Positions 10,963 to 26,596 of a stretch of 57,301 bases of DNA are shown piece by piece. Origin of the DNA: an uncultured Bdellovibrionales bacterium. Lineage in GTDB: Bacteria > Bdellovibrionota > JAFGOL01. Where the stretch lies: NCBI GenBank assembly GCA_964452945.1, contig CAYVOB010000001.1:1-57301 (forward strand), in the 5' to 3' direction. Numbering within the stretch: position 1 is the first letter of the stretch; each line of letters opens with the position of its first letter. The notes under the pieces were generated by a model. The model saw only the letters and a list, made by a program, of their open reading frames with translations. It was not told where the DNA came from and did no database searches. The position numbers and the translations under genes were made by a program.

Positions 10963-11046
10963 TTTATCCACTCAGGGTATTTTAACAAAGCTATATCTTG
11001 GTATAAAAGCCCACTAAGATCATATAGTTGTCAACTAACACAACTT

Positions 11047-11062: not shown

Positions 11063-11102
11063 TTATATAAAGTGTAAAAAGAACCGAAAGGGGGAAGGAC
11101 AA

Positions 11103-11360: not shown

Positions 11361-11621
11361 TCACTGTGGCGTAGTCGTCTGATCACTGGTACCCGTACTT
11401 GTCTTATCAAAAATACTAGTGTGCTTTTTTGATAGCTGATTGACACTGAAGTCACAATCCTTTGGTCTGTAATTTATTATAGAAGTATTATCAAGCCCGG
11501 TATAAGACTTTGAAAAATCCTTTTGCACCAGACCACTCATATCATCCTCTTCGGCAACTGCATTACCAAAGCACAAAGAAAGCAGGGCGAAGCTACATAC
11601 AAGCGTTTTTGTTAATTTCAT
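11361..11621 (-). CDS. small secreted protein, last gene of the Tad-like cluster
   Basis: 86 aa. Signal peptide MKLTKTLVCSFALLSLCFGNAVA and a Thr/Ser-rich tail. A strong AAGGAGG lies upstream, 11 nt after the YD-repeat gene. Confidence 0.55.
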   Translation of the reverse strand: MKLTKTLVCSFALLSLCFGNAVAEEDDMSGLVQKDFSKSYTGLDNTSIINYRPKDCDFSVNQLSKKHTSIFDKTSTGTSDQTTTPQ

Positions 11622-11632
11622 ATCCTACCTCC

Positions 11633-13249
11633 TTAATCCTGAACTACTATTAGTTTGAACACGGACATAAGCTCCATATAATCAAGATAGGCCCTCTTTA
11701 CACTCCAGAACTTGTTAATATCGCTCCCTTCTCTTGGAACAGCGGACATTCTGCCTTCAGCATCGTAGCTTACCTTTACATCCGAATCTTTGGTACCAAG
11801 TTCACTTATCCTACCCATCTCGTCATATTTAAAGGAGAACGAGTTACCTTTGTTATCAATTATCTTGGAAACGTTTCCATTACCGTCATAATCGATCTTG
11901 AACTTAAGGTCCCTGCTGGCCACCATCGTTACTTGGCTTTTGTCATTATACTTGTAAAGGTATGGCTCTCCATTGTTTATTATAGAGGAGGCACGGTTCC
12001 TTTCATCATATTTTACTTCGACAATCCTTCCATCAGGAAAAACCTTCTTTTTTAGTCTGCCATCCTTGTTGTATTCAAAACGCGTGACCTTGCCGTTCTC
12101 ATTTACGACGAGTGGTGTACCGCAACACATGGTGTAGGTAACCATTTTTTCATGCTTACCGATCTTTTGTCTCGTCTTATAGGTATATAAGGAGCCTTCC
12201 GCATTAGGTCTTTTCCAGAACTCATATTTTTCCGGTATAACCTCGTTACCGAACTTCTTTATTATGTTTACGGAGTCATAGTATTGGTCCTTTCCCTTAT
12301 CACTCGCATATTCGGTGAATATTTCCCATCCCTGAGGTGTCTTCTGATATACCACCTTTCCTGTTTCTGTATCATAGCCGATCACCCATTTTGTAGGCTT
12401 TGGACCCGCATCACCTGCCGGAAGTACAACCTCTATGACCCTGTGATAGGAATCATACTTATAATTATATGTTTTCCCATTAACGTCGGTGGAACTTATA
12501 AGGTTATCGTTAGTATCGTAAGAATAGGATGCAGCCTTGTTATTATATAGAGCTATCCTTTCAACAAGACCCTTGTCGTTAAAGAAGAAGTTCATGCTCC
12601 TCCCCAGACTATCCCTGATAGTTTGTAACCTTCCATTGGCATAATAGGAAAAAACAAAGCCCCTTCCTGTAGGCATGCTCCTTTTTATGATCCTGCCTGA
12701 TTGATCGAACTCATCCACCACACCGTCGGCACCTGACCTTATATAACCACCCTTGACCTTCTTTAGCTTTTCACCCGATCTTTCTATACAAGTAAGCACA
12801 ACACCATCCTTTATTTTACCCAACATCTTGTAGCCTCTTGCATACTCAAACAAGAAAGCAGGCTCTTTAAGCAGTGTGCTCTTCAGTCTTTCAACATAGT
12901 CCTTACCGTTCTGTGCTGCATTGGTTGACTTAAGGTATCTATCAGCAAGCTGTGTTAAGGTGAACGAATCCTTGTCTATATAATGGTGTCTTCCTCCACC
13001 GGGGACTTCCTCAACCATGACAAAAGATCCATCAGCAACATATAGTCTAGTCTCAAAACGTGTGCCCCAGCCAAAGCCGAAGATACCCTTTGAAAGACTT
13101 ATACTGTTATAAAAACGACCCAACTCAAAATCATTACCTTCATTCACGTCAGTATAGGATAAAGAAAAGTTACCGTTCAGGAGCCAAAGAGTGGAAAAAC
13201 CAGATAACGGTGCAAGCATGACGGCTAATGCTACTATAATTTTTTTCAT
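11633..13249 (-). CDS. secreted YD/RHS-repeat protein (short, with no toxin tip)
   Basis: 538 aa with a signal peptide. It has multiple YD repeats (YSYDTNDNLISSTDVNGKTYNYKYDSYHRV, FEYNKDGRLKKKVFPDGRIVEVKYDERNR, IDYDGNGNVSKIIDNKGNSFSFKYDEMGRI, VSYDAEGRM). Confidence 0.8.
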   Translation of the reverse strand: MKKIIVALAVMLAPLSGFSTLWLLNGNFSLSYTDVNEGNDFELGRFYNSISLSKGIFGFGWGTRFETRLYVADGSFVMVEEVPGGGRHHYIDKDSFTLTQLADRYLKSTNAAQNGKDYVERLKSTLLKEPAFLFEYARGYKMLGKIKDGVVLTCIERSGEKLKKVKGGYIRSGADGVVDEFDQSGRIIKRSMPTGRGFVFSYYANGRLQTIRDSLGRSMNFFFNDKGLVERIALYNNKAASYSYDTNDNLISSTDVNGKTYNYKYDSYHRVIEVVLPAGDAGPKPTKWVIGYDTETGKVVYQKTPQGWEIFTEYASDKGKDQYYDSVNIIKKFGNEVIPEKYEFWKRPNAEGSLYTYKTRQKIGKHEKMVTYTMCCGTPLVVNENGKVTRFEYNKDGRLKKKVFPDGRIVEVKYDERNRASSIINNGEPYLYKYNDKSQVTMVASRDLKFKIDYDGNGNVSKIIDNKGNSFSFKYDEMGRISELGTKDSDVKVSYDAEGRMSAVPREGSDINKFWSVKRAYLDYMELMSVFKLIVVQD

Positions 13250-13275
13250 GGTCTATCTCCTATAGTAATTGTCGA

Positions 13276-14172
13276 CTAAACCTTTATAGATACTATTCGT
13301 TTTATCACAAATCCGCCTAAACCCTGAAGGAAAAACATCAGAGTCAGCATCCCATAACCCAAGGGTGTCGTGAATAGAAGTGCGGTCTGGGTTGGATTAC
13401 CATAATACTGGACCGCTAAAAGGACCAGGGGGACTACCGTTATTACTATTGCCTGGAATATTCCCTGTGCGGTCAATGCTTTTACCTTGGCTGTCAGCTT
13501 TACTCTTTCTCTTATTGTGTAGGCTATCGTATCGAACGTCTCTGGAAGATTACCACCGGTCTCCCTCAATATAAGTATGGCTGTTGCGAACATATCAAGG
13601 TCCTCAAGGTCCAGTCTTCGTGCCAGGTTAACAAAAGCTTCATCTATAGGTACACCGACCCTGTTCTGAGCCAACAATAATGTAAACTCCTGTTTAATAG
13701 GATTAGGCATCTCCTCAACTACAAGTCCAACAGCCTGTATAAGATTAAGACCGCTCCTTAACCCATTCGACATCAGTGTAAGGGCGTCGACCATTTGCAG
13801 GTTAAAGCTCATGGAGCGTTTTGCCTTCATCCAGTTTATTACCGGTATTGGCATCTTGGCGAACATGAACCCCACAGCAGAACCAACTAATATACCTGCT
13901 ATAAAGTTAGGTAAAAAGAGCACAAAAACTATAAAACCAATACCAAGTGTACCGGCATAAATAAGTATTAATGCAGTCCTCTTGTTGAAATCTATAAAAA
14001 GGGTATCCAGTTCCTTTACAAGCCATTCTGCTTTTTCTTCGAATTTTTTGTCTAGATAAGTAAGGGCTTTTTTGGAATTTATAAGTGCAACTATAAAAAT
14101 AAGGGTCCCGCCCATAACGAGCACCCCTATCTTATACAGCATCCATATGTTACCGCCTTCTTGCAACATCAA
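13276..14172 (-). CDS. tadB: Tad platform protein, TadB-like (T2SSF domain)
   Basis: Polytopic membrane protein with the T2SSF core LMSNGLRSGLNLIQAV..LARRL..DLDMFATAILILRETGGNLPETFD. It abuts the ATPase gene. The exact start is uncertain (14172, or 14142 for the MLYKIG start). Confidence 0.8.
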   Translation of the reverse strand: MMLQEGGNIWMLYKIGVLVMGGTLIFIVALINSKKALTYLDKKFEEKAEWLVKELDTLFIDFNKRTALILIYAGTLGIGFIVFVLFLPNFIAGILVGSAVGFMFAKMPIPVINWMKAKRSMSFNLQMVDALTLMSNGLRSGLNLIQAVGLVVEEMPNPIKQEFTLLLAQNRVGVPIDEAFVNLARRLDLEDLDMFATAILILRETGGNLPETFDTIAYTIRERVKLTAKVKALTAQGIFQAIVITVVPLVLLAVQYYGNPTQTALLFTTPLGYGMLTLMFFLQGLGGFVIKRIVSIKV

Positions 14173-16341
14173 CTATCCCACACTAAAAAGACCCTTAGGT
14201 ATGGAGATACCTCTGGCCTCTAGTGTTTCTATGAACCTAGGAATATATCCAGTAGCGACGAATTTTCCTATTACTTTGCCATTTGAATCAACACCTGATT
14301 GTTTGAAAAGGAAAATGTCATTCAACAAGATCTCATCACCCCTGATGCCATTGACCTCTGTAACATAAGTTACTTTTCTTGAACCATCACTTAATCTAGT
14401 CTGTTGTATCACTATATTTATTGCTGACGCTATCTGTTCCCTTATCGCCTTAGCCGGAAGTTCCATCCCTGCCATCATGACAAGTGTTTCCAGCCTTCTT
14501 ATGCAATCAGTTGGGCTGTTGGAATGTATAGTGGTCAATGAACCGTCATGACCCGTGTTCATAGCCTGCAACATGTCCAATGCTTCTCCTGAACGACACT
14601 CACCTACTATGATCCTGTCAGGCCTCATCCTGAGCGTGCATTTTACAAGGTCCCTTATGGTGACTTCTCCTTCACCTTCTATGTTAGGAGGCCTGCTTTC
14701 CAACCTAACAGTATGGTCCTGTTGAAGTTTAAGCTCGGCCGAATCTTCGACGGTGATTATTCTTTCGTGCTCCGGTATCATCCCTGAAAGTATATTGAGG
14801 AGTGTTGTTTTACCTGAGCCGGTACCACCGGAAATTATTACATTAAGTCTGGACTCTATTACCGCCTTAAAGAACTCCGTCATATCACTTGTAACAGAGC
14901 CATATTTGATAAGATCATTTGGTCCGAGTTTTTCCTTCTTGAACTTTCTTATAGTCAGCGTGGGGCCATCTATTGCCAGTGGAGGTATTATGGCGTGAAC
15001 TCTTGAGCCATCTGCAAGACGCGCATCAACATAAGGTGATTTTTCGTCTATACGCCTGCCTATAGGTGCAAGTATCCTCTCTATAACTCCCATTAATTGT
15101 TGTGAGGACGAGAACGTAGATGGCGAAAGTATGACTTTACCATTTTTCTCTATGTATATTATATCTGGACCATTGACCATTATTTCCGATACTGTTTCAT
15201 CTGACAAAAGATCTTCCAAAGGACCAAGTCCCAAAGCCTCATCCAGAATGGCCTTTATCAACAAGGCCCTGTCTTCCCTGCTCTTAAGAAAACTTAAGTC
15301 CTCTTTCTCCAACAACCCGATAACCGTTCTTTTTGTCTTCTCATAGAGAATGGTCATCTTGTTAGGATCATCCTTAGTCTCAAGGTCCATCTTCTTAAGG
15401 TCCATATTGTCTATGAGTGCTTTGTGGACCCTGCGCTTTAGTTTTGTAACCTCACTAACTTTACCGGCTCTTCTTTCCTTGACGCTGAGGGTTTCAAGTC
15501 CAGCAAGGTCTTGCGCAGCTAAGGCCCCTTCTTTTTGAGCGCTCTGCTGTTCTGCCTTTTTTGTTTTATTAACGCCATATAACGAATCGAGTATCCCTCT
15601 CTCCTGCAAGACCCTGGCTATCTGGTATATGTTCTTAGACAACAAGCTCTTTGGGGACAACAATATTGCCGGTTTACCTTTAGTTATGGAATTATGGCTG
15701 GTCTCTGGGTCTTCTTGCACAGCGCCGAGTATTGGCACAGAAAGATTGGACTGCACTATCTGAGGAGTGATCTGGTTTGAAGGATCATATTTATTAATTA
15801 TAACTTTGAGCACTTCTGGCGGGAACATTAAACCATTAAGTTCATCCACAAGTCTTTTAGTGTGTTTTAGGACTAATATCTCCGGGTTGGTTACAAGGAG
15901 TATGATCGTGGCTTGTTCTAGGATAGTAAGGACCTGTGGTGTAAGACGGCTTCCGCAATCAGCTATGGTAAACGGGAAAAAGGACATAGCTGCTTCCATG
16001 ACCCTTTTTATATCGTTACTACCCACACCGTTATATTCGGACATCTTTTGTACCATAGGAAGAACGCTTAGCCCGCTAGAATGTGCAGACAAGAATTCCT
16101 TAAGCATCGCCTGCGTAACCCTGCCTGTGAATTTTGAAACATCCGCAATGCTTCTTTGTGGTTTGATACCTAATATCATACCAGCATCACCACAGGTATC
16201 CGGATCAGCGTCTATTAAAAGTACTGGTCGCTTTGTATCTAACAAAAAAGATAAAGCAAGGTTGGTTGAAAAAAGGCTCTTGCCGACTCCACCCTTGCCG
16301 CCAAGAACCGCGATCAAGTAAGTTCTGCTTGGATTAGGCAT
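14173..16341 (-). CDS. cpaF: fusion protein: MinD/ParA-like TadZ/CpaE domain plus CpaF/TadA secretion ATPase
   Basis: 722 aa in one frame. The N-terminal roughly 255 aa carry the deviant Walker A AVLGGKGGVGKS and the IDADPD motif (MinD/CpaE type). The C-terminal roughly 420 aa form the CpaF core (EIMVNGPDIIYIEKNGK, ISGGTGSGKTTLLN, VEDSAEL, RMRPDRIIVGECRSGEA, NTGHDGSLTTIHSN). Confidence 0.85.
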   Translation of the reverse strand: MPNPSRTYLIAVLGGKGGVGKSLFSTNLALSFLLDTKRPVLLIDADPDTCGDAGMILGIKPQRSIADVSKFTGRVTQAMLKEFLSAHSSGLSVLPMVQKMSEYNGVGSNDIKRVMEAAMSFFPFTIADCGSRLTPQVLTILEQATIILLVTNPEILVLKHTKRLVDELNGLMFPPEVLKVIINKYDPSNQITPQIVQSNLSVPILGAVQEDPETSHNSITKGKPAILLSPKSLLSKNIYQIARVLQERGILDSLYGVNKTKKAEQQSAQKEGALAAQDLAGLETLSVKERRAGKVSEVTKLKRRVHKALIDNMDLKKMDLETKDDPNKMTILYEKTKRTVIGLLEKEDLSFLKSREDRALLIKAILDEALGLGPLEDLLSDETVSEIMVNGPDIIYIEKNGKVILSPSTFSSSQQLMGVIERILAPIGRRIDEKSPYVDARLADGSRVHAIIPPLAIDGPTLTIRKFKKEKLGPNDLIKYGSVTSDMTEFFKAVIESRLNVIISGGTGSGKTTLLNILSGMIPEHERIITVEDSAELKLQQDHTVRLESRPPNIEGEGEVTIRDLVKCTLRMRPDRIIVGECRSGEALDMLQAMNTGHDGSLTTIHSNSPTDCIRRLETLVMMAGMELPAKAIREQIASAINIVIQQTRLSDGSRKVTYVTEVNGIRGDEILLNDIFLFKQSGVDSNGKVIGKFVATGYIPRFIETLEARGISIPKGLFSVG

Positions 16342-16345
16342 ATAT

Positions 16346-18013
16346 TTATTTCACCCTGAATTTTTCTTTTATGGAATCGCTACCCTCGCTGGCAGTGTTC
16401 AAAATTTCCGGAGTAATAAAGACGACAAATTGTGATTTGCCTTTAGAGAAGGATTTGGACCTAGAAAGGCTCACAATAACGTTAGGATCTTCACTGCCGT
16501 CCATATAGGACTTGGACAGGTTATTTTGTACTATACCGCCTATGGCGGCAGTATCACCAGATTTTATGTTTATATATGTTTCTATAGAATCCTCTGATGT
16601 AATAGGTATTGTAGTCCCGGAGGACGTACCTATAACCTGTGATACACCTATAGCTATGGTCATATTCAGATCTTCTGATTTTTGCGGATCATTCAGTATC
16701 TTTGGAGTGATGTTCATACTGATACCTACATCAGCAGTTTTTGTATCGATACTGTTCTGTGTCTGCACCACATAAGGATATTTTGTCATCTTCTTGATGC
16801 TGCCAGTCTTGGTATCTTGTACCGTTATTGCTGCCGATTGAATAACCCTTCCCCTACGATTCCTCACTGCATCCTGAAGCTTTGGTATAAAGTTACTTAC
16901 TATACCTGTTATGGTAGTCGCTGTAGATGGCAATGGATTACCGTTGTTGTCATTAGCTGGAGGGTTGGACCAAGTAAAAGATGCATTAGTATTGTTCGTA
17001 TTTATTGATGGCGCCCAACTGAAACCAAAGGCATTATCAAATCCCTTTTGTATCTCGACAAAGTAAACCGATATCTTAACCACTTTATCGATAGGTTTAT
17101 CCGGCTCTATGACCTTAACAAAATACTGTATGATCGGCTTATCCCTAAACCCTTCTGCCGGCATCGTCATTTCTCCTGCACCGGAAGGATCGCCTATCAA
17201 AGGTGTATAAAAGTACTTTGGCAGATAAAGCACGGCCCTGTAATAAACATCTTCAAGTTCATCATAACTTTTTACTTCGCCTTTCAACACAAAGCGCTGA
17301 TTCACAACATCTACCTGTACGGTAGCTACATTAATTTCTTCTTGCATCTTTTGAGCGACTATTTTGAACAATGTAGGACTCAACCTGTATTGTATCTTGA
17401 ATATGTCTGTCGGTATGTAATCACTATTCCCGCCGATCACCTGGTGTATCCTGGCTATATCCTCCGGCAATAGTATCTCGCCATCCAGGTATATACGTTT
17501 TTCACGTATATACATCTTCAAGCCCTCTATATTCTTAAATTCCCTCTTAAGGAAGCCAAGGACCCTTTTAAGGTTCTTTTCCGTAACAGTAACGTTATAA
17601 ACATACCTAAGCACATCCTGGTTATCGTAGACCCAAAGATCTGTCATCCCCGGGGTAGTTCCGGTAAAAACTATTCTATCCTTTTCAAGACTTGGATCAT
17701 CTTCTTTTTTATTTACCTCAAATTTATATATATTGGGGTTGGTTGGTTGCCTTACTGTCCCAATAGGAAAATCAAGATAGAGCTCTTTTCGTATTCCGAG
17801 GACCACATTTATGTCGCGATATTTTACCTTTGGTTTCTTTTTTAATTTCTTTTTCTCTGTTTTCACATCCTTAACAGCAACGCTATCAGTTTGCACTTGA
17901 TCTTCTGTTGTGTTTGGGGCTTGAGCAGCATTGTCCTGAGAGAGCAATACACAAGAGTATGCAAAAGAAAGGACTAGAATTATTGAAAGCAGTATTTTTC
18001 TAAACTTCATCAT
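16346..18013 (-). CDS. cpaC: secretin, CpaC/RcpA-like
   Basis: 555 aa with a signal peptide and a low-complexity K-rich linker. C-terminal secretin-type region (GDTAAIGGIVQNN..FVVFITPEIL). Its position between cpaB and the ATPase is as in Tad loci. Confidence 0.8.
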   Translation of the reverse strand: MMKFRKILLSIILVLSFAYSCVLLSQDNAAQAPNTTEDQVQTDSVAVKDVKTEKKKLKKKPKVKYRDINVVLGIRKELYLDFPIGTVRQPTNPNIYKFEVNKKEDDPSLEKDRIVFTGTTPGMTDLWVYDNQDVLRYVYNVTVTEKNLKRVLGFLKREFKNIEGLKMYIREKRIYLDGEILLPEDIARIHQVIGGNSDYIPTDIFKIQYRLSPTLFKIVAQKMQEEINVATVQVDVVNQRFVLKGEVKSYDELEDVYYRAVLYLPKYFYTPLIGDPSGAGEMTMPAEGFRDKPIIQYFVKVIEPDKPIDKVVKISVYFVEIQKGFDNAFGFSWAPSINTNNTNASFTWSNPPANDNNGNPLPSTATTITGIVSNFIPKLQDAVRNRRGRVIQSAAITVQDTKTGSIKKMTKYPYVVQTQNSIDTKTADVGISMNITPKILNDPQKSEDLNMTIAIGVSQVIGTSSGTTIPITSEDSIETYINIKSGDTAAIGGIVQNNLSKSYMDGSEDPNVIVSLSRSKSFSKGKSQFVVFITPEILNTASEGSDSIKEKFRVK

Positions 18014-18786
18014 CTATCTAAACCAAATATCTCCCTATCCGTTGTCGGAGTTATTATCTCATTACCTCTGTCGTTGGCGTTCCTTAGTGTATAATAAAGC
18101 TCAGCTCCAGATAAAGCTACTATCTTTTGTGCTTCTTTTGGCGTCACTTCTATCGTGATATTGTTGAACTGTTGACCTGTCTCTGAACCTTTGTCCGGCT
18201 GAACACACTTAAACCCTTTTGGATAATTAGCATCAGACACAAAAGTTGGGACCTGAGTGTATACATCAGTCCCGACCGAGAGAACAAAGACATCCTGCAA
18301 GACGGTAGTAACTTTTGCTGTGTTCTGATTACCTTCTGCAACCACGGATGAGGCAAGTATATCTATCCTGTCACCTGGTTTTATAAGGTTAGCAACACTA
18401 TTCACAGTTGTAGCTCTTATCGCTATTGCACGTTTCCCTTTTGACACTATCGGGGATAATCCTGTTTTCTGACCAAGGAACAAGAGTTTATTCGTAGTAA
18501 TAGTTTCATTCTCGGCAATTGGAACCGCAGTGACCGTGTCCTTTAGGTCTTTAACATTTGCAAGATAGTTAGGCTGTACGTATTTTCTAGGTATCCTTCT
18601 AAGTTCGATCGAACCAGAATCTATTGATTGATATTGTCCTATGTTCTTCGTGGCGACCATCACCTCATCAAAAGTGCCAAGGTCCTGATACAGTTTTGCC
18701 TCTTTTTGGGATATATATGTATACCCAAGTAATATGGCAAAACCAGTAAGTATGACGGATATTATAAGCGACTTTGTATTACCCAT
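18010..18786 (-). CDS. cpaB: Flp pilus assembly protein CpaB/RcpC-like (SAF domain)
   Basis: 258 aa with an N-terminal membrane anchor and a SAF-like segment (IELRRIPRKYVQPNYL). It has a 4-nt overlap with the secretin gene. Confidence 0.75.
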   Translation of the reverse strand: MGNTKSLIISVILTGFAILLGYTYISQKEAKLYQDLGTFDEVMVATKNIGQYQSIDSGSIELRRIPRKYVQPNYLANVKDLKDTVTAVPIAENETITTNKLLFLGQKTGLSPIVSKGKRAIAIRATTVNSVANLIKPGDRIDILASSVVAEGNQNTAKVTTVLQDVFVLSVGTDVYTQVPTFVSDANYPKGFKCVQPDKGSETGQQFNNITIEVTPKEAQKIVALSGAELYYTLRNANDRGNEIITPTTDREIFGLDR

Positions 18787-18797
18787 ATGTCTCTCCT

Positions 18798-19298
18798 CTA
18801 TTTCTTACTGCAGGTGTCACCATCCTGCATTTCGAGAACCTTTGTATCTACTTGCTCGTTCATAACACTTCTTCCACCCAAACAGATCCCCATCGCTTGC
18901 CCCATAGAAAGTCCGTCTGTAAGACGAGCTTCCAGGCCACTACGATCCCCTCTGGTCATAAAAGTAAGCAGTATGCTCGCCGTTGACTTGTCCAAACCTA
19001 TATTCATTCCAGGGGTACCGCTATCATCACCGAATTGATTATATACAAAGAAGTATTGCCCGTCAGCAGGAGTTTTTCCAGCAGGGTTCTTTGTACTCTT
19101 AACTTCGGTTGTAACCTCAGACCTATTCATCAGAGAACCTATCACAATGTTCTTTAATGATCTTTGTACAACCTGGACCCTATTAACGGTTATGTACGCC
19201 TGATATATAAAGAATATCATGACAACGACGAATGGTATCAAGAGAACCGTCTCAAGCATTGCCTGTCCTTTTTTAGAACCCGTTGTCGGCGATAACAT
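18798..19298 (-). CDS. TadE-like pseudopilin
   Basis: 166 aa. N-terminus GSKKGQAMLETVLLIPFVVVMIFFIY (short basic leader, G-Q junction, Glu at +5, hydrophobic helix). Confidence 0.6.
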   Translation of the reverse strand: MLSPTTGSKKGQAMLETVLLIPFVVVMIFFIYQAYITVNRVQVVQRSLKNIVIGSLMNRSEVTTEVKSTKNPAGKTPADGQYFFVYNQFGDDSGTPGMNIGLDKSTASILLTFMTRGDRSGLEARLTDGLSMGQAMGICLGGRSVMNEQVDTKVLEMQDGDTCSKK

Positions 19299-19836
19299 TA
19301 AGTACCGAACCTCCTGTTGCTGAAGAAGCTAGACAATCCATCCATTTGTTCTTTGGATCCATTGCACACTGAGAATGGTCATCCGAGATCTCACTACCGG
19401 TCATGGATTCTAAGGCCAGCATCAGCTGATTTCCACTACTCCTTGTAATTATACCCGGTAACAAGTAATTAGCATAAACAGAACATGCTATACCGGCATT
19501 GGAGGATATATTAAAGCCTGACGGGAAACCATAGTCCATGATACCCCTGAACCCATTTGAAGGATTAAGGTCGCATACTGGTGCAGAAACAGCAGTTATA
19601 ACGGAAGCTCCGTCATATTTTGCTTTTACTTCGTTAGCCCTACTCAACTTATCACCATATGACTTTGACGACGCAAGTATTGCCCTTCCGATCATGAAGA
19701 CCTCATAACTTCTATAATGTAAGGCAGCAAATGATACTGCAAAATAAAAGGCATAGATTATAACGCTTATCACGAGCACGAACATCATGACAAACTCCAC
19801 AGCGACCTGTCCTTTTTTAGATCCCTTTGATCTCAA
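19273..19836 (-). CDS. TadE-like pseudopilin
   Basis: 187 aa. N-terminus MRSKGSKKGQVAVEFVMMFVLVISVIIYAFY. Confidence 0.6.
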   Translation of the reverse strand: MRSKGSKKGQVAVEFVMMFVLVISVIIYAFYFAVSFAALHYRSYEVFMIGRAILASSKSYGDKLSRANEVKAKYDGASVITAVSAPVCDLNPSNGFRGIMDYGFPSGFNISSNAGIACSVYANYLLPGIITRSSGNQLMLALESMTGSEISDDHSQCAMDPKNKWMDCLASSATGGSVLNVIADNGF

Positions 19837-20138
19837 ATCCAGCCACCTTTTATGTAACTGTAAGGATGTTTACTACCGGTATTGCTGACAGGCCCGTACA
19901 TCAAGGGCGCCTGACCGCTAGTCACAGTACCGTTAGCTTCGTTGAACTGATCTTGATAGAAATCCCTTGAATAGCCGTAGCGGACCTGTGAGACGACTTC
20001 ATACTTAAGCCATGAATCCATTTTTCCAAAAACGTTCTTATTGATGTAAGAAATAGTCGCGACCAATATGGGAACAAGGACTGCTATCATCAGTAAGAAT
20101 TCGACTGTAGCTTGACCTTTCCTTTTACCCAACCCCAT
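19833..20138 (-). CDS. TadE-like minor pilin
   Basis: 101 aa. N-terminus MGLGKRKGQATVEFLLMIAVLVPILVATI. Confidence 0.6.
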   Translation of the reverse strand: MGLGKRKGQATVEFLLMIAVLVPILVATISYINKNVFGKMDSWLKYEVVSQVRYGYSRDFYQDQFNEANGTVTSGQAPLMYGPVSNTGSKHPYSYIKGGWI

Positions 20139-20168
20139 ATATAGACCCTCAACGTAAAGTATAACCCT

Positions 20169-20375
20169 TTATTGGGTTTTCTGCCAACCACTTGTTTGTG
20201 ATGTTGAGAGCTTTTCTATAACCTGATTTTTCATGAAAAGTTCTATCGCACCTTGTTGACCATCCCATCCATAAAAGATGTCCTGAACATGTACCACTAC
20301 CTTCCAGAATATAGCTGCAATAACGACCATAAGAAGAAGATACTCTACGGTCGCCTGTCCTTTTTTAGAGACCAT
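20169..20375 (-). CDS. flp: Flp-family prepilin
   Basis: 68 aa. MVSKKG/QATVEYLLLMVVIAAIF fits the Flp G/xxxxEY processing motif. Confidence 0.7.
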   Translation of the reverse strand: MVSKKGQATVEYLLLMVVIAAIFWKVVVHVQDIFYGWDGQQGAIELFMKNQVIEKLSTSQTSGWQKTQ

Positions 20376-20377
20376 TA

Positions 20378-20569
20378 TTACTGACCAGACTGTTCTACCG
20401 TATCCAATCCTTTGGAAACCTTTCCAGTTGCCTTTTCTACCAGGCCCTGGAATTGTTTAGGCATAAATTTAGCGACTACAACTACTATAGCTACCAGCAC
20501 GGCTAGTATAAGTATGTATTCCGTCGCACTCTGTCCTCTTTTATTAAAAAAAGTTCTAAGACCTTTCAT
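20378..20569 (-). CDS. flp: Flp-family prepilin
   Basis: 63 aa. MKGLRTFFNKRG/QSATEYILILAVLVAIVVVVA. A strong Shine-Dalgarno sequence (GAGGGGAGG) and a consensus promoter lie upstream. Confidence 0.7.
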   Translation of the reverse strand: MKGLRTFFNKRGQSATEYILILAVLVAIVVVVAKFMPKQFQGLVEKATGKVSKGLDTVEQSGQ

Positions 20570-20610
20570 TCCCTACCTCCCCTCTTAAAGATTTTATCTT
20601 TTGCTCTATT

Positions 20611-20639
20611 ATTATAGTATATCTATGCAAATTTGTCAA
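20611..20639 (-). promoter_or_regulatory. consensus sigma-70 promoter driving the flp genes
   Basis: The minus strand reads TTGACA-AATTTGCATAGATATAC(17 nt)-TATAAT. It sits about 40 nt upstream of the flp ATG and right after the stop of the upstream FHA gene. Confidence 0.7.
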
Positions 20640-20659
20640 TACCATCCCAAAAACCTTTT

Positions 20660-22774
20660 TCATAATTTAGTGCCACACCTTTTTTTAGCTCTCTCCGCAG
20701 CATTATTGTAATACTTACTTCCAGGTATCGCTATCTCCAACACCCTATTATACAAAGGGCATGCAGTTGCAAGATCAGAAACACTTTCTGCTATAGCAGC
20801 TCTTGCAAAGATCTCCCTTGCTTCTTCATCCAAAGCTTCCTTGGATTTATTTATACCGTCCTTTGCCTCCTTGTTCTTGTAGTCCATCTTCAAGACCCTT
20901 TTATAAGCATCTATGGCCTCTTTATATCTACCGTTGGTATAAGCCTCCATAGCACCGCTCAGCTCTGGTGTAACAGCCTCTTTAAGAAGATTGCTGGCCG
21001 AACCCAAAAGTGTTTTGCACTCGTTCTTTATCTGTGTGATCCTTTCTCCGTCGCTGGGTGGATAAGCTACACACTTCTGGAATGTTTCTATGGCCTTTCT
21101 GTACTCCTTAGTGGCGTGATACCTTTTCCCCTCAGCAAGCACTTTCTCATACTTGGAAAGTGTAACAAGGTATTTCGCTCTCTCGTCAGCAAGCATCTTC
21201 TTTTTAGATTCCATTGCCTCTATCTGATCCGCTAGCGCTTTTGCTTTCTCATTATTGGGGTCTATCTCGAATATCTTGGAGATCAGGTCTTTTACTTGAT
21301 CATATTTTTTTTGTCGCATCAGTGACTCAGCATCCTGAAGGTATAGGGCCACCTTTTTTTCCAGTTCCTTCCTGACCACTGCCTCTTCTTCTTCTTTCTT
21401 TTGAGCCAGGAGTTTTTCCTTTTCTGTATTAGCTGCATTCAAAAGTTCTTTTGCCTTATCCCAGTCAGGGACTTCGGTAAGTATTTGTTGTGCCATATCC
21501 TCGGCAAGCTCGAACTGATAGTTCTTGAACAGCTTAAGTGCCACTTCATATTTAGCCAGTAATTCTTTTTGTACCGTTAATGTACGTTGACAAAAAGATC
21601 CCGTCTCCTCACATTTTACTTCCGGAATAGCCTCTTCTGCGGGAGCTGCCTGTGGTTCAACATTATTATTGTTAACAGGCGCAGGCTGTTCCTGTTTGCT
21701 CCCTTTTCCCAACAAGATCACAGCTACAACGACTATAAGTCCAACGATCAGGATTATTGGTATTAGTTTATTCTTCTTTATAGCTTCTTTAGCACCTTCT
21801 TTAAAGCCATAGGACTTCTCTATCTTTCTTATAGCGGTATCACTTGGTACCGCAGAGATCTTCTCTACGGATCCATGCTTTGATCCTGTGGTTTGACCTA
21901 TATCCTTAACACCCTGGATGTTCTGCACTTGGGGATTTACGACCATAAAGCGGAGTATAGAGGAACCAATCTCTATAATGTCTCCGCTAGTAAGAAGGAC
22001 CGGCTCAAGAGTTTTTTTGCCATTTACTCTTGTGCCGTTAGCACTATCAAGATCGACTACAAAATAGTCAACACCCTGCCTATAGAACCTGGTATGCTCT
22101 CTGGATACAAGATCATCTATAAGAGATATATCAGCTTTTTTTCCTCTACCGGCTATCATCACGTCTTTTTCAAGAGTGAATACTTTATCCTTGTGCGGAC
22201 CACTTATAGCGATGAGTTGATATAAAAGATATGCTGGCCCCACCATTGTAGCATCGGAGACTACCTGTCTTGACTCTGTTGTCTTTTCCTCTTTTTTACC
22301 AGCAACAGGCTCTACTTTTTCTTCTACCTTTTCTTTTTCTTCATCTTTTTCTTTTTCCGTAGGCTCTTTTGCTTCTTCTTGTTCAGGCGTGACGGTCTCT
22401 TCCTTTACAGGTTCAACCTCTGCGCTCATAGTAAAAAAATCAAAGTCGTCCTGTTTTTTCTTTGGCTTTTCTGACTCACTCGAACCTGCTTTTGCATCGA
22501 ACATCACTGTCACGTCACCTATGGATACACTCTCACCATCCTTTAATTCACCTTTTTCTATATCTTCACCATTCTTGTTTATCATGCCAAATTTTGCTTT
22601 CTTAGAGAAAGAAAGAGTTTCGGCATCCTTTACATTGAATTCAATGTGTTTACGAGACACGTTGTCTTCCGGTATACAGATGTCGCAACTTTCTGTACGA
22701 CCAAGGACAAAAGAATCCCTTTTTATATCGAACTCTTTAATGAGCTTGTTTGCTTTAAAAACCTTTATTTTCAT
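20660..22774 (-). CDS. membrane protein with two cytoplasmic FHA domains and a periplasmic TPR-rich domain
   Basis: 704 aa. FHA1: LGRTESCDICIPEDNVSRKHIEF. Acidic E/K linker. FHA2: AGRGKKADISLIDDLVSREHTRF..VVDLDSANGTRVNG. One transmembrane helix (LIPIILIVGLIVVVAVILLG). The C-terminal part has TPR-like repeats. Confidence 0.8.
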   Translation of the reverse strand: MKIKVFKANKLIKEFDIKRDSFVLGRTESCDICIPEDNVSRKHIEFNVKDAETLSFSKKAKFGMINKNGEDIEKGELKDGESVSIGDVTVMFDAKAGSSESEKPKKKQDDFDFFTMSAEVEPVKEETVTPEQEEAKEPTEKEKDEEKEKVEEKVEPVAGKKEEKTTESRQVVSDATMVGPAYLLYQLIAISGPHKDKVFTLEKDVMIAGRGKKADISLIDDLVSREHTRFYRQGVDYFVVDLDSANGTRVNGKKTLEPVLLTSGDIIEIGSSILRFMVVNPQVQNIQGVKDIGQTTGSKHGSVEKISAVPSDTAIRKIEKSYGFKEGAKEAIKKNKLIPIILIVGLIVVVAVILLGKGSKQEQPAPVNNNNVEPQAAPAEEAIPEVKCEETGSFCQRTLTVQKELLAKYEVALKLFKNYQFELAEDMAQQILTEVPDWDKAKELLNAANTEKEKLLAQKKEEEEAVVRKELEKKVALYLQDAESLMRQKKYDQVKDLISKIFEIDPNNEKAKALADQIEAMESKKKMLADERAKYLVTLSKYEKVLAEGKRYHATKEYRKAIETFQKCVAYPPSDGERITQIKNECKTLLGSASNLLKEAVTPELSGAMEAYTNGRYKEAIDAYKRVLKMDYKNKEAKDGINKSKEALDEEAREIFARAAIAESVSDLATACPLYNRVLEIAIPGSKYYNNAAERAKKRCGTKL

Positions 22775-23748
22775 TATTCAAAAACTTCCCCTCTTCTTTT
22801 TTCGGTCATATTTTTCCACTTCTCGGCTTCTTTGAATAGATTCGAATCCGCTTGTCTGTTGTTAAGGTTCAAAACCTCATTAAAATTCCTCAATGCATCC
22901 TCATAACGCTTTTGGGCGAACATCTTTTTCCCTATGGATAGATATTTCTGGCTTTCCTCTTCTATCTTCTTGTTGGTTTGACCTGCGGCTGTTTTAGCCC
23001 TTGTATGGCCTGGATAAAAGGCAACCGCTTTTCTGAACTCTTCCAATGCTCTCGAATAATTCTGCAACCTGAATTCTCTTTGTCCCTCAAAATAACGAGC
23101 ATTAGCCTGATCGAATAATTCCCGTTCATCGTCAGGTATCTTTTTTCTGAACCTGGCATCCTCTTCATCGCTGAACATATCATTGTTGTTATTCTGGTTC
23201 TGTCCAGATGTATTAACGGCCTGGTCCTTATCGGACCCTTCTTTAGATTTCTCCTGTGACGGCAACATCAATATAAAAATGACCAGAAGTAATAAAACCC
23301 CGCCGTATATAACGAACCTCTTGTTCTTAATACCTTTAGCTCCTGTTGTCGAAGACGGTATATTAAAATCCATAGAAGACGAAGATATCCCTGGTATTGT
23401 CCTTTCTGGACTTTTTGACTGTGATGGTTCATTGAGCCTTAGTTCCTCAACATCTTTTTCTGCATACATGTACTCATGGTTCCCAATAGAGAACACATCA
23501 CCTGATACGAGATAATGTTCCTTTACTTTTTTACCGTTAACAAGAATACCATTACTGGAATTAAGGTCTTTTATTACAAAGGAATCATTCACTCTTATAA
23601 GTTCTGCATGATTCCTTGATGCTGATGAATCAGTTACAACTATATCATTATCTGCAGAGCGGCCAAAGCGTACACTGCTGCCTTTGATCCTGAATTGTGC
23701 TCCAGCATCGTTACCCTTTAGTATCTCTATTCTTGCTTCCTTTGCCAT
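22774..23748 (-). CDS. membrane protein with an FHA domain and TPR repeats
   Basis: 324 aa. FHA: FGRSADNDIVVTDSSASRNHAELI..IKDLNSSNGILVNG. Transmembrane helix FVIYGGVLLLLVIFILML. C-terminal TPR-like repeats. Its stop overlaps the start of the next gene (TAATG). Confidence 0.8.
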   Translation of the reverse strand: MAKEARIEILKGNDAGAQFRIKGSSVRFGRSADNDIVVTDSSASRNHAELIRVNDSFVIKDLNSSNGILVNGKKVKEHYLVSGDVFSIGNHEYMYAEKDVEELRLNEPSQSKSPERTIPGISSSSMDFNIPSSTTGAKGIKNKRFVIYGGVLLLLVIFILMLPSQEKSKEGSDKDQAVNTSGQNQNNNNDMFSDEEDARFRKKIPDDERELFDQANARYFEGQREFRLQNYSRALEEFRKAVAFYPGHTRAKTAAGQTNKKIEEESQKYLSIGKKMFAQKRYEDALRNFNEVLNLNNRQADSNLFKEAEKWKNMTEKRRGEVFE

Positions 23749-23754
23749 ATCCTT

Positions 23755-25374
23755 TTATACCATCTCCACGCTGACGCAGTGATACGTAAACTCTCCCCTG
23801 TCATTTTTTATACCGCTTACCCCTATCCTGTATACCTTATCACTAACTATTGCCTCCTCGCTAAGATCCTGTCCCATTTCATCGAACCTGGCAATAAGGC
23901 TCAAGATAACACCAAGTATCCTTTGCTCCTTGATCGCGTCCACTAAAGGGATCCCGTGCCAATCAGAAGCTCTGTACGTAGTAATAGTAGAAAAAGCCTG
24001 ATTGGCAGAAACTATCGTATTTGAGTTATCCAATACAAAAAAAGGTACTTTAAGTGAACGACCAACTGAATCGAAGATAAGGATGTTGTCTATACCGCCA
24101 TGCATGTCATGCAGCGATTCTGGTGCATTCTCATAAAAGACCTTAGCAGAAGCCCTTCTAGATTTTCTTATAAGTATGTTCAAAAGCTCTACTAGGTCCA
24201 TTCCCTCCCTGGTACCAAAGCTATAATTAACTCTTTTTGCTTCACCCTTGAGAGCGAGATCAAGCTCGTCGTATATCCTGACAAAAGGCAGAGTGAATAG
24301 CCTAGAAAAGAACATCGCAATTAACACGCCAATAAAGCAAGCTATAGCCATACCGACCAATATCCTTTGCCAAGCACCCGCCATGCTATTCTGTATACCA
24401 GAGGTGCCGAACATAAGTGTGGCAAAACCAACGATCACGTTCTGGCCCTCTCCTTCAGAATAGACCTTTATTGGCGATGTAACAATATACTCTCCGTTAC
24501 CCACAGAAAAAACATCCGCGCTCCTTTTGTAAACATTGGCGCCTATTTTTACAGTATCTTCCTTAAATTCTATTGTTCCTTTTAGTATCTCCTTTATCCT
24601 GTCCATTACAGCACCGGGGATCTGGTCTCCTGCTCTATCAGCTGGAGCGAGTATCTTTCCGTTTAGGTCAGTAATGGCGGACCATTCCACACCAGGAACA
24701 TCTTCGGCTGCTTTGATAGAAGGGATCTCTTCACTCTCTGTAGTGACAGTATTCTTGTTTTCTTCTGCAAGCAGGTTCGAAAGATATACAGCCCTCTGTG
24801 CAGCCTCATTATCAAGCAACATACTGTCAAACTGGATCACAGGTACGGTAACTATGAGCGTAATGGCAACTATACTAACAAGCAGCACTATCGATATAAT
24901 CACTGATACGGAATATCTTTTTGATATTTCCTCAAAGAAAGGCATTACAGTCGTCTCAAGGAAAGAATCAATACTCCCTTTTAAGCCCGGAATCCTTGTT
25001 CTTGGTTTACCCCTATATTCAAATTCATAATCATCACTTTGTTGTCCCTCTGGGACAGAAAAGCTGGACATATCTTCGATTTTAACATCACCTTTAACCA
25101 GCTGGTATACGTGATCATGTATCGCTATTTTATCACCGGCGTTGATCTCTTTTTTCTTAACCATAACACCATTAACGAAGGTACCATTCTTGGAACCAAG
25201 GTCTATTATACTTACAATGCTGCCCTTAACATTTATGTTGGCATGCTTTTTTGATACACCGTTAGAAGCGATCTTTATATCCGCACCATCGGCACGACCT
25301 ATAATGTTATCTCCTTCTTTAAGTATCGATGACCTTGCCGAGCTCTGGCCGCTTAAACATATCAGGCGGAACAT
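23755..25374 (-). CDS. FHA-domain membrane protein with a periplasmic sensor-like loop and a HAMP/PAS-like C-terminus
   Basis: 539 aa. FHA: IGRADGADIKIASNGVSKKHANI..IIDLGSKNGTFVNG. Two transmembrane helices flank a loop of about 150 aa. A cytoplasmic C-terminal domain follows, with no kinase or other output motif visible. Confidence 0.75.
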   Translation of the reverse strand: MFRLICLSGQSSARSSILKEGDNIIGRADGADIKIASNGVSKKHANINVKGSIVSIIDLGSKNGTFVNGVMVKKKEINAGDKIAIHDHVYQLVKGDVKIEDMSSFSVPEGQQSDDYEFEYRGKPRTRIPGLKGSIDSFLETTVMPFFEEISKRYSVSVIISIVLLVSIVAITLIVTVPVIQFDSMLLDNEAAQRAVYLSNLLAEENKNTVTTESEEIPSIKAAEDVPGVEWSAITDLNGKILAPADRAGDQIPGAVMDRIKEILKGTIEFKEDTVKIGANVYKRSADVFSVGNGEYIVTSPIKVYSEGEGQNVIVGFATLMFGTSGIQNSMAGAWQRILVGMAIACFIGVLIAMFFSRLFTLPFVRIYDELDLALKGEAKRVNYSFGTREGMDLVELLNILIRKSRRASAKVFYENAPESLHDMHGGIDNILIFDSVGRSLKVPFFVLDNSNTIVSANQAFSTITTYRASDWHGIPLVDAIKEQRILGVILSLIARFDEMGQDLSEEAIVSDKVYRIGVSGIKNDRGEFTYHCVSVEMV

Positions 25375-25700
25375 CTTATAACCTCCCCGATCTTTAACGA
25401 CTTTGATTCTATAGTACCACTATAAAGCTCTAGCGTGCTCTTTGCCTTAAATCTTGGTTTGCATATTCTCCACGGTCTTACATTACTTTCCATATCTACG
25501 ATCGCGTTATTAGCATCAAGATATACAGCATCTATATTATTGATCATGAACAATGTATGTATCCAATTGCATCTCGGTATCAGCAGACCATCTCCCTCGT
25601 TTATTGATCGCTTTAACATAAAGCCCCTAAATCTCAAAAAAACAGATTCCGCTCTTTCTACATTGTCAGCTATCATTCTTTCGCCAGAGGATATTTTCAT
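25362..25700 (-). CDS. DUF192 (COG1430)-like small protein
   Basis: 112 aa. The pattern RFRGFMLK..GDGLLIP.CNWIHTLFM...IDAVYLD..N.IV......PW......KA.STLELYSGT fits my recollection of DUF192. It overlaps both neighbours (4 nt and 13 nt). Confidence 0.6.
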   Translation of the reverse strand: MKISSGERMIADNVERAESVFLRFRGFMLKRSINEGDGLLIPRCNWIHTLFMINNIDAVYLDANNAIVDMESNVRPWRICKPRFKAKSTLELYSGTIESKSLKIGEVIRCSA

Positions 25701-26596
25701 CCGCCATAAACCTTCTTTAAGATGATCGGACCGAATATAACTATAAAAACTGCCGGAAGTATGAATATTGCCATCGGGATCAATATCTTTGTCGCCGCTT
25801 TTCCGGCCTTAGCCTCGGCTGACATAAACCGTTCATGCCTGATAGAATCTGATTGTGCTCTAAGTACATCCCCTACGGGAGATCCCATCCTTTCAGCCGT
25901 AACAAGAACAGAGACAAAAGAAGTTATCTCCTTAAGACCGATCCTGTCTGCCATGTTCTTTAACGCTTCACTTCTCATGGCACCAAGCTGTATCTCCTTT
26001 AGCACTATCTCGAACTCTGACCTTAAAGGTCCAGGCTGTCCCTTTTCCACGACCTTGCCCATAGCTCCATTAAAATCAAGTCCAGCTTCCACACAAAGAG
26101 TTAAAAGATCGACCACAAATGGCATCTCTCTCTTTACTTGATCTTGGCGTTTTACGATAACACCGTTTATCCAGAACTGTGGATAATACCAGCCAAAAAA
26201 AGCAAATATGGGGGCATACATTACAGGAAGCCCAAAACCCAAAATGAAGTTATATATGTAAACTGCGAACGGAAGAGAGAATGCAAACACGACCCTGTAA
26301 GCATACATGTCGTCTGGAGAAAAAACGTCCCTCAACCCAGCACTAGAGAGTTTCTTTCTCATTTTTTCCCTATACTTCTCTAGCTTCCACTTTGTAACAC
26401 TGGGTAATATCCTTCTTACCAGAGGATACATCACCTTCAACACCGGCGATGGAAAATCTTTTTTGATCAGGCCTATCCCAAGCCTTTCTTGATCATCGAT
26501 GGAAAGCTCTTCACCTACGATAAGTTTGACAAGGATATATATAGCTATGCCAATAAGTATTGCTGCAATAATGAGTGTAATAGTGCCCATCCCCAT
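25697..26596 (-). CDS. tadC: Tad platform protein, TadC-like (T2SSF domain)
   Basis: 299 aa polytopic protein with the core MPFVVDLLTLCVEAGLDFNGAM..MADRIGLKEITSFVSVLVTAERMGSPVGDVLR. Confidence 0.8.
   Translation of the reverse strand: MGMGTITLIIAAILIGIAIYILVKLIVGEELSIDDQERLGIGLIKKDFPSPVLKVMYPLVRRILPSVTKWKLEKYREKMRKKLSSAGLRDVFSPDDMYAYRVVFAFSLPFAVYIYNFILGFGLPVMYAPIFAFFGWYYPQFWINGVIVKRQDQVKREMPFVVDLLTLCVEAGLDFNGAMGKVVEKGQPGPLRSEFEIVLKEIQLGAMRSEALKNMADRIGLKEITSFVSVLVTAERMGSPVGDVLRAQSDSIRHERFMSAEAKAGKAATKILIPMAIFILPAVFIVIFGPIILKKVYGG

Follow-up and report, generated by a model that had tools for sequence, protein, structure and literature searches.

In Bdellovibrio bacteriovorus most genes for the core of the Tad pilus machine are found in tad locus 1, which adjoins the hit locus, and tadC is located elsewhere; the machine contains an atypical TadZA fusion, TadV is missing and Flp1 is processed by PilD, and proteins with FHA, TPR and PAS domains are encoded near the tad genes, notably near tadC (bioRxiv 10.64898/2026.07.08.737194). 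This machine plays an essential part in prolonged attachment, prey remodelling and invasion, and it is held at a fixed pole via RomR (bioRxiv 10.64898/2026.07.08.737194). Here we describe a locus of 16 genes in a stretch of 57,301 nucleotides (nt) from an uncultured Bdellovibrionales bacterium (assembly GCA_964452945.1, contig CAYVOB010000001.1, positions 1 to 57,301; the whole stretch is hereafter called the window). We consider it likely that this locus encodes a predator-type Tad (type IVc) pilus machine of the Bdellovibrionota kind, in which the counterparts of tad locus 1, of the tadC operon and of the hit locus are united.

In the hit locus, Bd0109 is a YD/RHS-repeat protein and Bd0108 a small, exported and intrinsically disordered one; the two bind each other, and their genes are co-transcribed with bd0110-bd0111 (PMC3818213, PMC5430801). 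The genes bd0109-bd0113 are syntenic in all Bdellovibrio and like organisms examined, and TadV, absent from Bdellovibrio, is present in the tad loci of Bacteriovorax and Halobacteriovorax. Bd0470-Bd0475 form one operon, in which Bd0473 has an FHA domain. A transposon insertion in Bd0470 (TadC) abolishes attachment, and a mutant with an insertion in Bd0474, a gene of the same operon, attaches but neither kills nor rounds its prey (PMC6561027). In Bd0474 a membrane segment connects a pair of FHA domains on the cytoplasmic side to a TPR domain outside the cytoplasm, and Bd0075, itself a TPR protein, is a binding partner of Bd0474 (PMC12034629). In the Kil apparatus of Myxococcus, KilD (MXAN_3108) combines FHA and TPR parts, is needed for killing and marks the sites of prey contact, and MXAN_4648 (FHA and TPR) and MXAN_4649 (FHA, PrgH-like) adjoin KilH, the orthologue of Bd0470/TadC; Kil-like systems have been proposed for Bdellovibrionales.

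The locus consists of 16 successive open reading frames (ORFs) on the minus strand, from position 26596 down to 11361, with an inter-gene spacing of -26 to +30 nt. The sole larger gap, of 90 nt, lies between 20660 and 20569 and separates the gene of a protein of 704 amino acids (aa) from flp1. A preliminary description, made from the letters of this DNA, had claimed this run of genes with this spacing, a consensus promoter in the gap and a gene-by-gene annotation, and on all three counts it was confirmed, the annotation by profiling the ORFs against Pfam and NCBIfam. The promoter, a sigma-70 consensus TTGACA-17-TATAAT (20639->20611, minus strand) upstream of flp1, is the only 12/12 match within the window, where 0.08 are expected and at least one match arises in 8 of 100 shuffles, and it is identical base for base in L082, the closest of the relatives compared. 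The loci compared are labelled L001-L086; homologues are named in the sources as Oligoflexia, Bdellovibrionales, Bdellovibrionaceae or Proteobacteria metagenome-assembled genomes (MAGs). L001-L081 are the matches listed from a contig scan with the TadZA alignment, that is, with very conserved CpaF peptides; few Bdellovibrionota loci are among them and B. bacteriovorus HD100 is not. Proteins were modelled with AlphaFold (AF2) and the models compared with the PDB by Foldseek.

All core parts of a Tad system are encoded in the cluster, every gene of which lies on the minus strand. The first gene specifies a TadC-like inner-membrane platform protein of 299 aa with three hydrophobic segments (25697..26596; Pfam T2SSF 73.7 bits), and the gene of a TadB-like platform protein (13276..14172; T2SSF 70.4 bits) is found about 11 kb away, with an ambiguous start, either TTG at 14172 or, as called in L001, an ATG ten codons downstream. 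Behind the promoter stand two Flp-type prepilins, of 63 aa (20378..20569; G12-QSATEY, a hydrophobic helix, weak Class_IIIsignal and Flp_Fap matches) and 68 aa (20169..20375; G6-QATVEY, a hydrophobic helix, a weak Class_IIIsignal match). They are followed by a TadE-like minor pilin of 101 aa (19833..20138; G8-QATVEF, Class_IIIsignal 24.9 bits against a cut-off of 23.7, TadE weak) and two TadE/F-like ones, of 187 aa (19273..19836; G9-QVAVEF and a hydrophobic helix), kept in L082 and L083, and of 166 aa (18798..19298; G11-QAMLET and a hydrophobic helix), with weak matches at the same position in L002, L003 and L084. The five small proteins score below the curated cut-offs of Pfam Flp_Fap and TadE, and all five display the Flp/TadE prepilin signature, in which a Gly (residue 6-12) precedes xxxxE[Y/F/T] and a hydrophobic helix; the flp1 product is 47% identical to its orthologue in L083, which has Flp Pfam matches. 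Next come RcpC/CpaB (18010..18786; TIGR03177 132 bits against a cut-off of 71, Pfam RcpC 71 bits) and an RcpA/CpaC secretin of 555 aa (16346..18013), in which Pfam Secretin (66.6 bits) covers residues 385-538 only and no pilus-N or BON domain is recognisable by Pfam in the N-terminus.

The ATPase is a TadZ-TadA fusion of 722 aa (14173..16341), a ParA/MinD-like part joined to a CpaF part, with CbiA at residues 10-216 (58 bits, besides matches to MinD models) and T2SSE at residues 370-647 (214.6 bits). The ParA-like part makes up the N-terminal 250 aa, Walker A motifs lie at residues 15 and 505, and the protein is 48-53% identical to its Bdellovibrionota orthologues and 55-60% identical to CpaF proteins of many phyla. 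TadZ is therefore present as the N-terminus of the fusion, and no receiver-like N-domain was found with Pfam and NCBIfam, in keeping with the earlier remark that a separate TadZ with such a domain is not visible. The locus thereby holds the parts by which Tad systems are recognised: a CpaF ATPase, two GspF-like platforms, RcpC with a secretin, Flp and TadE/F-like pilins, and a TadZ module. Uninterrupted TadZ-CpaF fusions occur in at least 43 loci of many phyla (43 of 80 among the matches listed), and the fusion, once a candidate hallmark of this system, was dropped as such on this account.

Compared with the canonical Tad systems (Aggregatibacter tad, Caulobacter cpa), the locus shares the Flp G/xxxxEY motif, TadE/F-like pilins, RcpC/CpaB, the secretin, TadA/CpaF, TadB, TadC and a ParA-like TadZ. 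It differs in that TadZ is fused to TadA and devoid of the receiver-like domain, TadV, TadD, TadG and RcpB are not in the cluster, tadC is remote from tadB, and FHA, YD and small secreted proteins have been added. The HD100 system (tad locus 1, Bd0110-0119; tadC operon, Bd0470-0475; hit locus, Bd0108-0109) likewise has the TadZA fusion and no TadV in the cluster, the same order of flp, minor pilins, RcpC, secretin, TadZA, TadB, YD protein and small secreted protein, and tadC followed by FHA proteins, the last of which has two FHA domains, a membrane segment and a TPR part, with FHA, TPR and PAS neighbours. In fact, the published descriptions of Bd0474 and of its operon fit the 704-aa protein of the window and the six-gene layout seen in L085. 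In HD100, however, tadC is in a separate locus, whereas in the window the three loci form one run of 15 kb; a sixth, Bd0475-like gene after the double-FHA gene is missing from the window; and HD100 has one Flp and a trimmed flp2 where the window has two full-length Flp genes. A single RcpC gene is present in the window and two in some relatives. The preliminary description had regarded several of the modules as having no defined role in Tad systems, which did not hold, as the YD and small proteins correspond by position to Bd0109 and Bd0108 and the tadC-FHA unit to Bd0470-0475. It had also stated that its view of a novel machine would fall if the gene set belonged to a named system with assigned functions for the FHA, DUF192 and YD components. 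Such a system largely exists, with the FHA and YD parts published and DUF192 left without an assigned function. Since the FHA, YD and small-protein modules have been published as accessories of predator Tad systems, this is not an uncharacterised non-canonical machine; the suggested kinship with the hit-region pilus genes and with Kil, as a predation-linked Tad-like machine, is upheld by gene order and published work alike. The system is thus already known in kind; its contiguous layout and its lack of the TadV seen in L083 count as small variations.

All 16 genes recur in unchanged order in L082 (TadZA 90% identical) and L083 (68%), the latter with one extra gene, tadV, and the flanks with RibF, an acyl-CoA synthetase-like gene, pyruvate kinase and GyrB are common to all three. 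The order cpaB-secretin-tadZA-tadB-YD recurs in L002, L004, L005, L006 (a complete genome), L007 and L084 (a genome of 2.98 Mb), with a small ORF after the YD gene in those inspected (L002, L005, L006, L007 and L084), and in these more distant Bdellovibrionota the genes upstream of the cpaB-to-YD block differ from those of the window. Homologues of the 539-aa FHA protein of the window, about 24% identical, led to L085 and L086 (Bdellovibrionales), in which tadC, DUF192, an FHA gene (518-530 aa) and another FHA gene stand alone between housekeeping genes; the module of L085 goes on to a double-FHA gene (638 aa), and the contig of L086 ends within the second FHA gene. In L005, an Oligoflexia MAG, the FHA genes adjoin flp as they do in the window. 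Two conserved units, tadC-DUF192-FHA-FHA-2xFHA and flp-to-YD/small-ORF, are thus linked in some lineages and unlinked in others. Among the matches listed, the features specific to the Bdellovibrionota type are the YD gene after tadB and the three-gene FHA set after tadC-DUF192.

The YD gene begins 26 nt after tadB and encodes a secreted protein of 538 aa (11633..13249; RHS_repeat 94.8 bits, plus DUF6531). Its model (predicted local distance difference test, pLDDT, 85.4; predicted template modelling score, pTM, 0.78) begins with a signal peptide and an N-terminal DUF6531/helical part, continues with about 30 YD hairpins and ends in a helix, and its Foldseek matches to Rhs cores, which are about twice its length, reach E 1e-21. 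With the Rhs/YD toxins (Rhs effectors of the type VI secretion system, Tc toxins, teneurins) it shares the YD beta-hairpin repeats and the N-terminal DUF6531, but it amounts to about half an Rhs shell and has a Sec-type signal peptide, and neither a DPxGL motif nor a C-terminal toxin domain nor an adjacent immunity gene was found. It is therefore best described as a secreted half-shell, not a toxin, and the candidate reading of the YD and small proteins as an Rhs toxin/immunity pair was ruled out by the same features, namely the absent toxin domain and DPxGL motif, the half-size shell and the Sec signal. Wherever the sequence of a Bdellovibrionota locus extends beyond tadB, the next gene is a YD homologue, as for instance in Bdellovibrio sp. 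HCB288 (L006; 27% identity, E 1e-40). This arrangement occurs only in Bdellovibrionota-type loci (L001, L002 and L004-L007 among the matches listed, besides L082-L084), the only other YD match in L001-L081 being a weak, non-adjacent one in L067.

The last gene of the cluster encodes a small, disorder-prone and putatively secreted protein of 86 aa (11361..11621), which has a signal-peptide-like N-terminus and belongs to no family; 75% of the residues of its mature part are disorder-promoting. A small ORF with a signal peptide and disorder-prone composition also follows the YD gene in L082, L083, L005, L006 and L007, and by these features the 86-aa protein is a candidate positional analogue of Bd0108. 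In L084 and in L002, which is labelled Pseudobdellovibrionaceae, the gene after YD (L084:14838-15170, L002:10514-10828) encodes a Lys/Ala-rich protein of about 105-110 aa with no signal peptide; the YD partner seems to have been replaced in these two loci.

A further trait shared with Bdellovibrio concerns the prepilin peptidase. In L083 a Peptidase_A24 (TadV) gene of 173 aa is inserted between flp2 and the first tadE-like gene (L083:5802-6323), and TadV occupies this junction in L005 and L084 as well, whereas in the window (20139-20168) and in L082 the junction is a bare gap of 30 nt. Searching the window by tblastn with the TadV proteins of L083 and L084 yielded no prepilin peptidase match, as expected from the remark in the preliminary description that TadV is not visible. 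TadV therefore appears to have been cleanly lost at this site, and since the cleavage motif is kept in all five prepilins, their processing would be carried out by a peptidase encoded elsewhere, which by analogy with B. bacteriovorus is probably of the PilD type.

The three FHA proteins were compared with their homologues. Four FHA domains are distributed over the three proteins (1 + 1 + 2), each of which has one or two strong hydrophobic segments after its cytoplasmic FHA part. The 539-aa protein (23755..25374; FHA 59.8 bits, PAS weak), whose position in the module corresponds to that of Bd0472, combines an FHA domain, a transmembrane segment (158-176), a periplasmic alpha/beta domain, a second transmembrane segment (338-356), a helical linker and a PAS-like domain. 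Its AF2 model (mean pLDDT 74.7) places the FHA domain at residues 1-94, followed by a disordered linker, the first membrane helix and the periplasmic alpha/beta domain (about 221-323), and in the C-terminal half the second membrane helix, long helices and the PAS-like domain (430-538). The top Foldseek match is the sensor kinase WalK (9a5d_A, 410 columns), and the next are phosphothreonine-binding FHA domains, those of FhaA, GarA, OdhI and Bdellovibrio DgcB. To judge from the model, the protein resembles a histidine kinase of which the sensor half is kept and the kinase replaced by an FHA domain. Its family is large, with 1089 representatives (clusters at 50% identity) at E<=1e-30; of the 150 best, nearly all match most of the profile and are about 490-590 aa long. 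The second protein (324 aa, 22774..23748; FHA 70.9 bits, TPR_2 33 bits) has a transmembrane segment at 145-163 and a periplasmic TPR part. The third, of 704 aa (20660..22774), has two FHA stretches (84 bits) and TPR matches, with a transmembrane segment at 337-355 between the FHA pair and a long periplasmic TPR/coiled-coil part. In L082 the orthologue of the latter is split into two ORFs of 70 and 619 aa (L082:3524-5649), by a frameshift or an assembly error.

All FHA domains of the cluster keep the residues that contact phosphothreonine, and these are highly conserved in all three families: G26, R27, S41, H44 and N63 of the 539-aa protein are invariant in 19 homologues, down to 21% identity, G29, R30, S44, H47 and N66 of the 324-aa protein in five orthologues, and the Gly-Arg, Ser-x-x-His and Asn-Gly positions in the second FHA domain of the 704-aa family. 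In addition, a gene for a Ser/Thr phosphatase of the PP2C_2 family (31 bits against a cut-off of 24) is located between the double-FHA gene and flp in L005 (L005:4287-5009), at the position of Bd0475. The sixth gene of L085 after the double-FHA gene encodes a 228-aa protein that belongs to no Pfam family and has no similarity to the L005 phosphatase, and neither this gene nor the PP2C has a counterpart in the window. Taken together, the phosphatase and the conserved residues favour phospho-dependent binding, and a phosphothreonine-dependent control of the machine, as put forward in the preliminary description, is plausible from these sequence features; a literature search on FHA or kinase control of Tad pili returned nothing relevant.

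The main mechanistic rival is that the FHA proteins act independently of phosphorylation, as a ring or alignment subcomplex of the inner membrane, similar to YscD/PrgH or PilMNO, which physically links motor and platform with RcpC and the secretin and takes no part in signalling. All four FHA domains also match Yop-YscD_cpl strongly (E 1e-12 to 1e-23), the succession of FHA domain, membrane segment and periplasmic part is the topology of YscD/PrgH, MXAN_4649 is annotated as PrgH-like, and no kinase gene is present in the 57-kb window. Tad systems are not known to have PilMNO equivalents. Against this view, the Arg, Ser, His and Asn of the phosphothreonine contact are invariant down to 21% identity, the nearest neighbours in sequence and structure are true phosphothreonine binders, a PP2C belongs to the L005 cluster, and the periplasmic parts are TPR or sensor-like rather than ring-building motifs. 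We thus regard a purely structural role as possible and clearly the less favoured view. In a more far-reaching reading, the 539-aa protein could be a kinase-less, WalK-like sensor of the envelope that, on a cue from the periplasm or the prey envelope, licenses TadC/TadZA through contacts between phosphothreonine and FHA and forms, with the pair of FHA-TPR proteins, a checkpoint between attachment and invasion, the small cytoplasmic DUF192 protein being an unrecognised, near-universal partner of TadC needed for Tad function in many phyla; this extended proposal we consider rather unlikely.

DUF192 is the remaining member of the tadC module. The protein (DUF192/COG1430, 112 aa, 25362..25700; Pfam DUF192 53.6 bits) has neither a signal peptide nor a transmembrane segment, and its gene overlaps tadC by 4 nt. 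In B. bacteriovorus, Bd0471 is the predicted DUF192 gene, to judge by gene order. With the window protein as a tblastn query, and counting genes on the same strand no more than 400 nt downstream of the last platform gene, a DUF192 gene directly follows the last platform gene in 24 of the 62 evaluable Tad loci among the matches listed, and one is found anywhere in the locus in 30 of the 62. The loci that bear it (L013-L075; e.g. L014:13905-14201, L030:4931-5233) span Firmicutes, Acidobacteriota, Chloroflexota, Proteobacteria and other phyla, and the family motif P-C-x-S-I-H-T is conserved. This distribution makes DUF192 a common Tad accessory, not one peculiar to the present cluster, and its genomic context suggests an accessory of general use in Tad systems, apparently not yet described. 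A phmmer search of the PDB with the protein gave no match, a profile search retrieved only the uncharacterised structural-genomics entries 3m7a and 3pjy, and in a full-text search the literature pairing DUF192 with a pilus was sparse.

Tad pili are adhesins in most bacteria, and the locus might accordingly encode an ordinary pilus for adhesion or surface sensing, with no part in prey interaction, in a member of the Bdellovibrionota/Oligoflexia that is not a predator. TadZ-CpaF fusions, DUF192 and FHA-CpaF fusions do occur in many non-predatory phyla, and the predatory lifestyle of the organism behind this MAG is putative. We find this reading unlikely all the same, because the YD gene after tadB is restricted to Bdellovibrionota-type loci among the matches listed, and the B. 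bacteriovorus operon that matches the tadC-FHA module holds the predation genes tadC and Bd0474.

The Kil system (MXAN_3102-3108, MXAN_4648-4661) shares with the locus a Tad-derived core, many FHA proteins and the lack of TadD and RcpB, as well as a protein with two FHA domains and TPR (KilD) encoded next to the ATPase gene, and FHA/TPR genes beside the TadC orthologue KilH. In L033, from the Myxococcaceae (Citreicoccus), the gene after kilF encodes a protein of 740 aa in which an FHA pair is followed by a hydrophobic segment and TPR-like repeats, and the 704-aa protein of the window aligns with it across both FHA domains (26% identity, E 7e-15); the likeness of the 704-aa protein to KilD is one of architecture. 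The Citreicoccus inhibens protein (L033:11289-13511), a presumed KilD orthologue, has the hydrophobic segment KLIMAVLGVVGLLVVGAVAKAAL between its FHA pair and its TPR-like part, which suggests a bitopic membrane protein, in contrast to the cytoplasmic KilD of the Kil paper.

It could be argued that the locus encodes a Kil-type contact-killing apparatus, which assembles at the site of prey contact and intoxicates or lyses the prey from outside rather than attaching and invading, the more so as its FHA/TPR architecture resembles that of KilD and MXAN_4648/4649 and Kil-like systems have been proposed for Bdellovibrionales. However, KilF has an N-terminal FHA domain (residues 70-134 in the Citreicoccus orthologue), whereas the N-terminus of the window ATPase is a ParA/MinD-like TadZ; the Kil genes are split into two clusters, keep the prepilin peptidase KilA, include TadG-like tip pilins and lack YD or hit-like genes, whereas the present cluster is contiguous and has no large tip pilin of the TadG/KilN type; and Kil is assembled at prey-contact sites, unlike the TadZA machine of B. 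bacteriovorus, which is kept at a fixed pole through RomR. We therefore deem a Kil-type apparatus quite unlikely. FHA-CpaF fusions of the KilF type are found together with tadC-DUF192 in L030:1563-3149, L067:9596-11239, L024 and L062:9515-11254, from MAGs labelled Oxalicibacterium, Piscinibacter and others, which implies that this Kil-like trait is not confined to known predatory lineages. Finally, the consensus promoter before flp1, the lack of an FHA module beside the core in L084, L006 and L007 and the solitary modules of L085 and L086 might suggest that the flanking modules (tadC-DUF192 with the three FHA genes, and YD with the small protein) have no relation to the tad genes and are operons that happen to lie next to them. 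This is highly improbable, given that TadC itself is an essential core part, that the five genes of its module stay together in loci with and without the core, and that, wherever a Bdellovibrionota locus leaves room for it, YD comes after tadB, being co-transcribed in HD100 with bd0110-0111.

Several observations weigh against assigning the locus to a predator-type Tad machine of the Bdellovibrio kind. The source is an uncultured MAG of putative predatory lifestyle. With the HD100 sequences lying outside the matches listed, the correspondence to Bd gene numbers is one of synteny, through Bdellovibrio sp. HCB288 and MAGs, and of published descriptions. The accessory proteins are 21-30% identical to their distant orthologues, sequence similarity of the 86-aa protein is detectable to L082 only, and in L083 the counterpart of the 704-aa protein has a degenerate first FHA domain. 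The RNase G gene (rng), on the same strand, ends only 38 nt upstream of tadC, so that spacing sets no 5' operon boundary for the tadC module. Pfam scans of the remaining ORFs of the 57 kb revealed neither a Ser/Thr kinase nor a PP2C phosphatase.

With the predator-type Tad machine as the preferred reading, the following mode of action can be proposed. The strong promoter would drive the Flp pilin genes and the genes downstream, and the five prepilin-like proteins would be cut after the conserved Gly by a PilD-type peptidase encoded elsewhere. TadZA, on the TadB/TadC platform, would polymerise the Flp fibre and retract it again through RcpC and the secretin; the TadZ part probably positions the machine, and the three small TadE-like pilins would prime or cap the fibre. 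More speculatively, the three FHA proteins, inherited together with TadC, may constitute a regulatory or scaffold module of the inner membrane, in which the cytoplasmic FHA domains would dock on a phosphothreonine of a Tad component or of one another, and the parts in the periplasm, TPR or sensor-like, would sense the envelope or interact with TPR partners. Such a module could license the passage from attachment to invasion, and the phenotype of the Bd0474 mutant would agree with this. In the periplasm, the YD half-shell and its small disordered partner may modulate the extrusion of the pilus. We infer a role in predation for the whole from the part played by the corresponding genes in B. bacteriovorus.

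The rest of the window consists, by Pfam, of housekeeping genes and one PilT-like ATPase, and Rfam and tRNA scans found one tRNA-Ala and no other RNA gene. The ATPase (44597-45724, minus strand) is a T2SSE-family protein of 375 aa, PilT-like by its size, encoded about 18 kb away from the cluster with housekeeping genes around it. Next to the cluster, a small ORF on the plus strand (11028-11357) is convergent with the gene of the 86-aa protein; if translation starts at an internal Met, its product would be about 84 aa long and have a signal peptide and a tail rich in Gly, Ser, Asn and Asp, and a counterpart is found at the same site in L082 and L083. Another gene located among housekeeping genes (32631-35201, minus strand) encodes a protein of 856 aa in which NHL repeats are joined to three Glce-type beta-sandwich domains, an unusual pairing.

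Three leads emerge from this locus, none of which alters the classification of the system: the phosphothreonine-contact residues in all three FHA proteins together with the PP2C of a sister cluster, the WalK-like 539-aa sensor, and the tadC-DUF192 pair, which spans phyla and yet is absent from current Tad models. The locus itself offers a compact, single-site reference for the predator Tad gene set, the parts of which are scattered in B. bacteriovorus. That the tadC-DUF192-FHA module, the Tad core and the hit-like pair of YD and small proteins are contiguous here speaks for their being one functional unit, a unity that the Bdellovibrio field has so far inferred only from gene neighbourhood and transposon-sequencing (Tn-seq) data.

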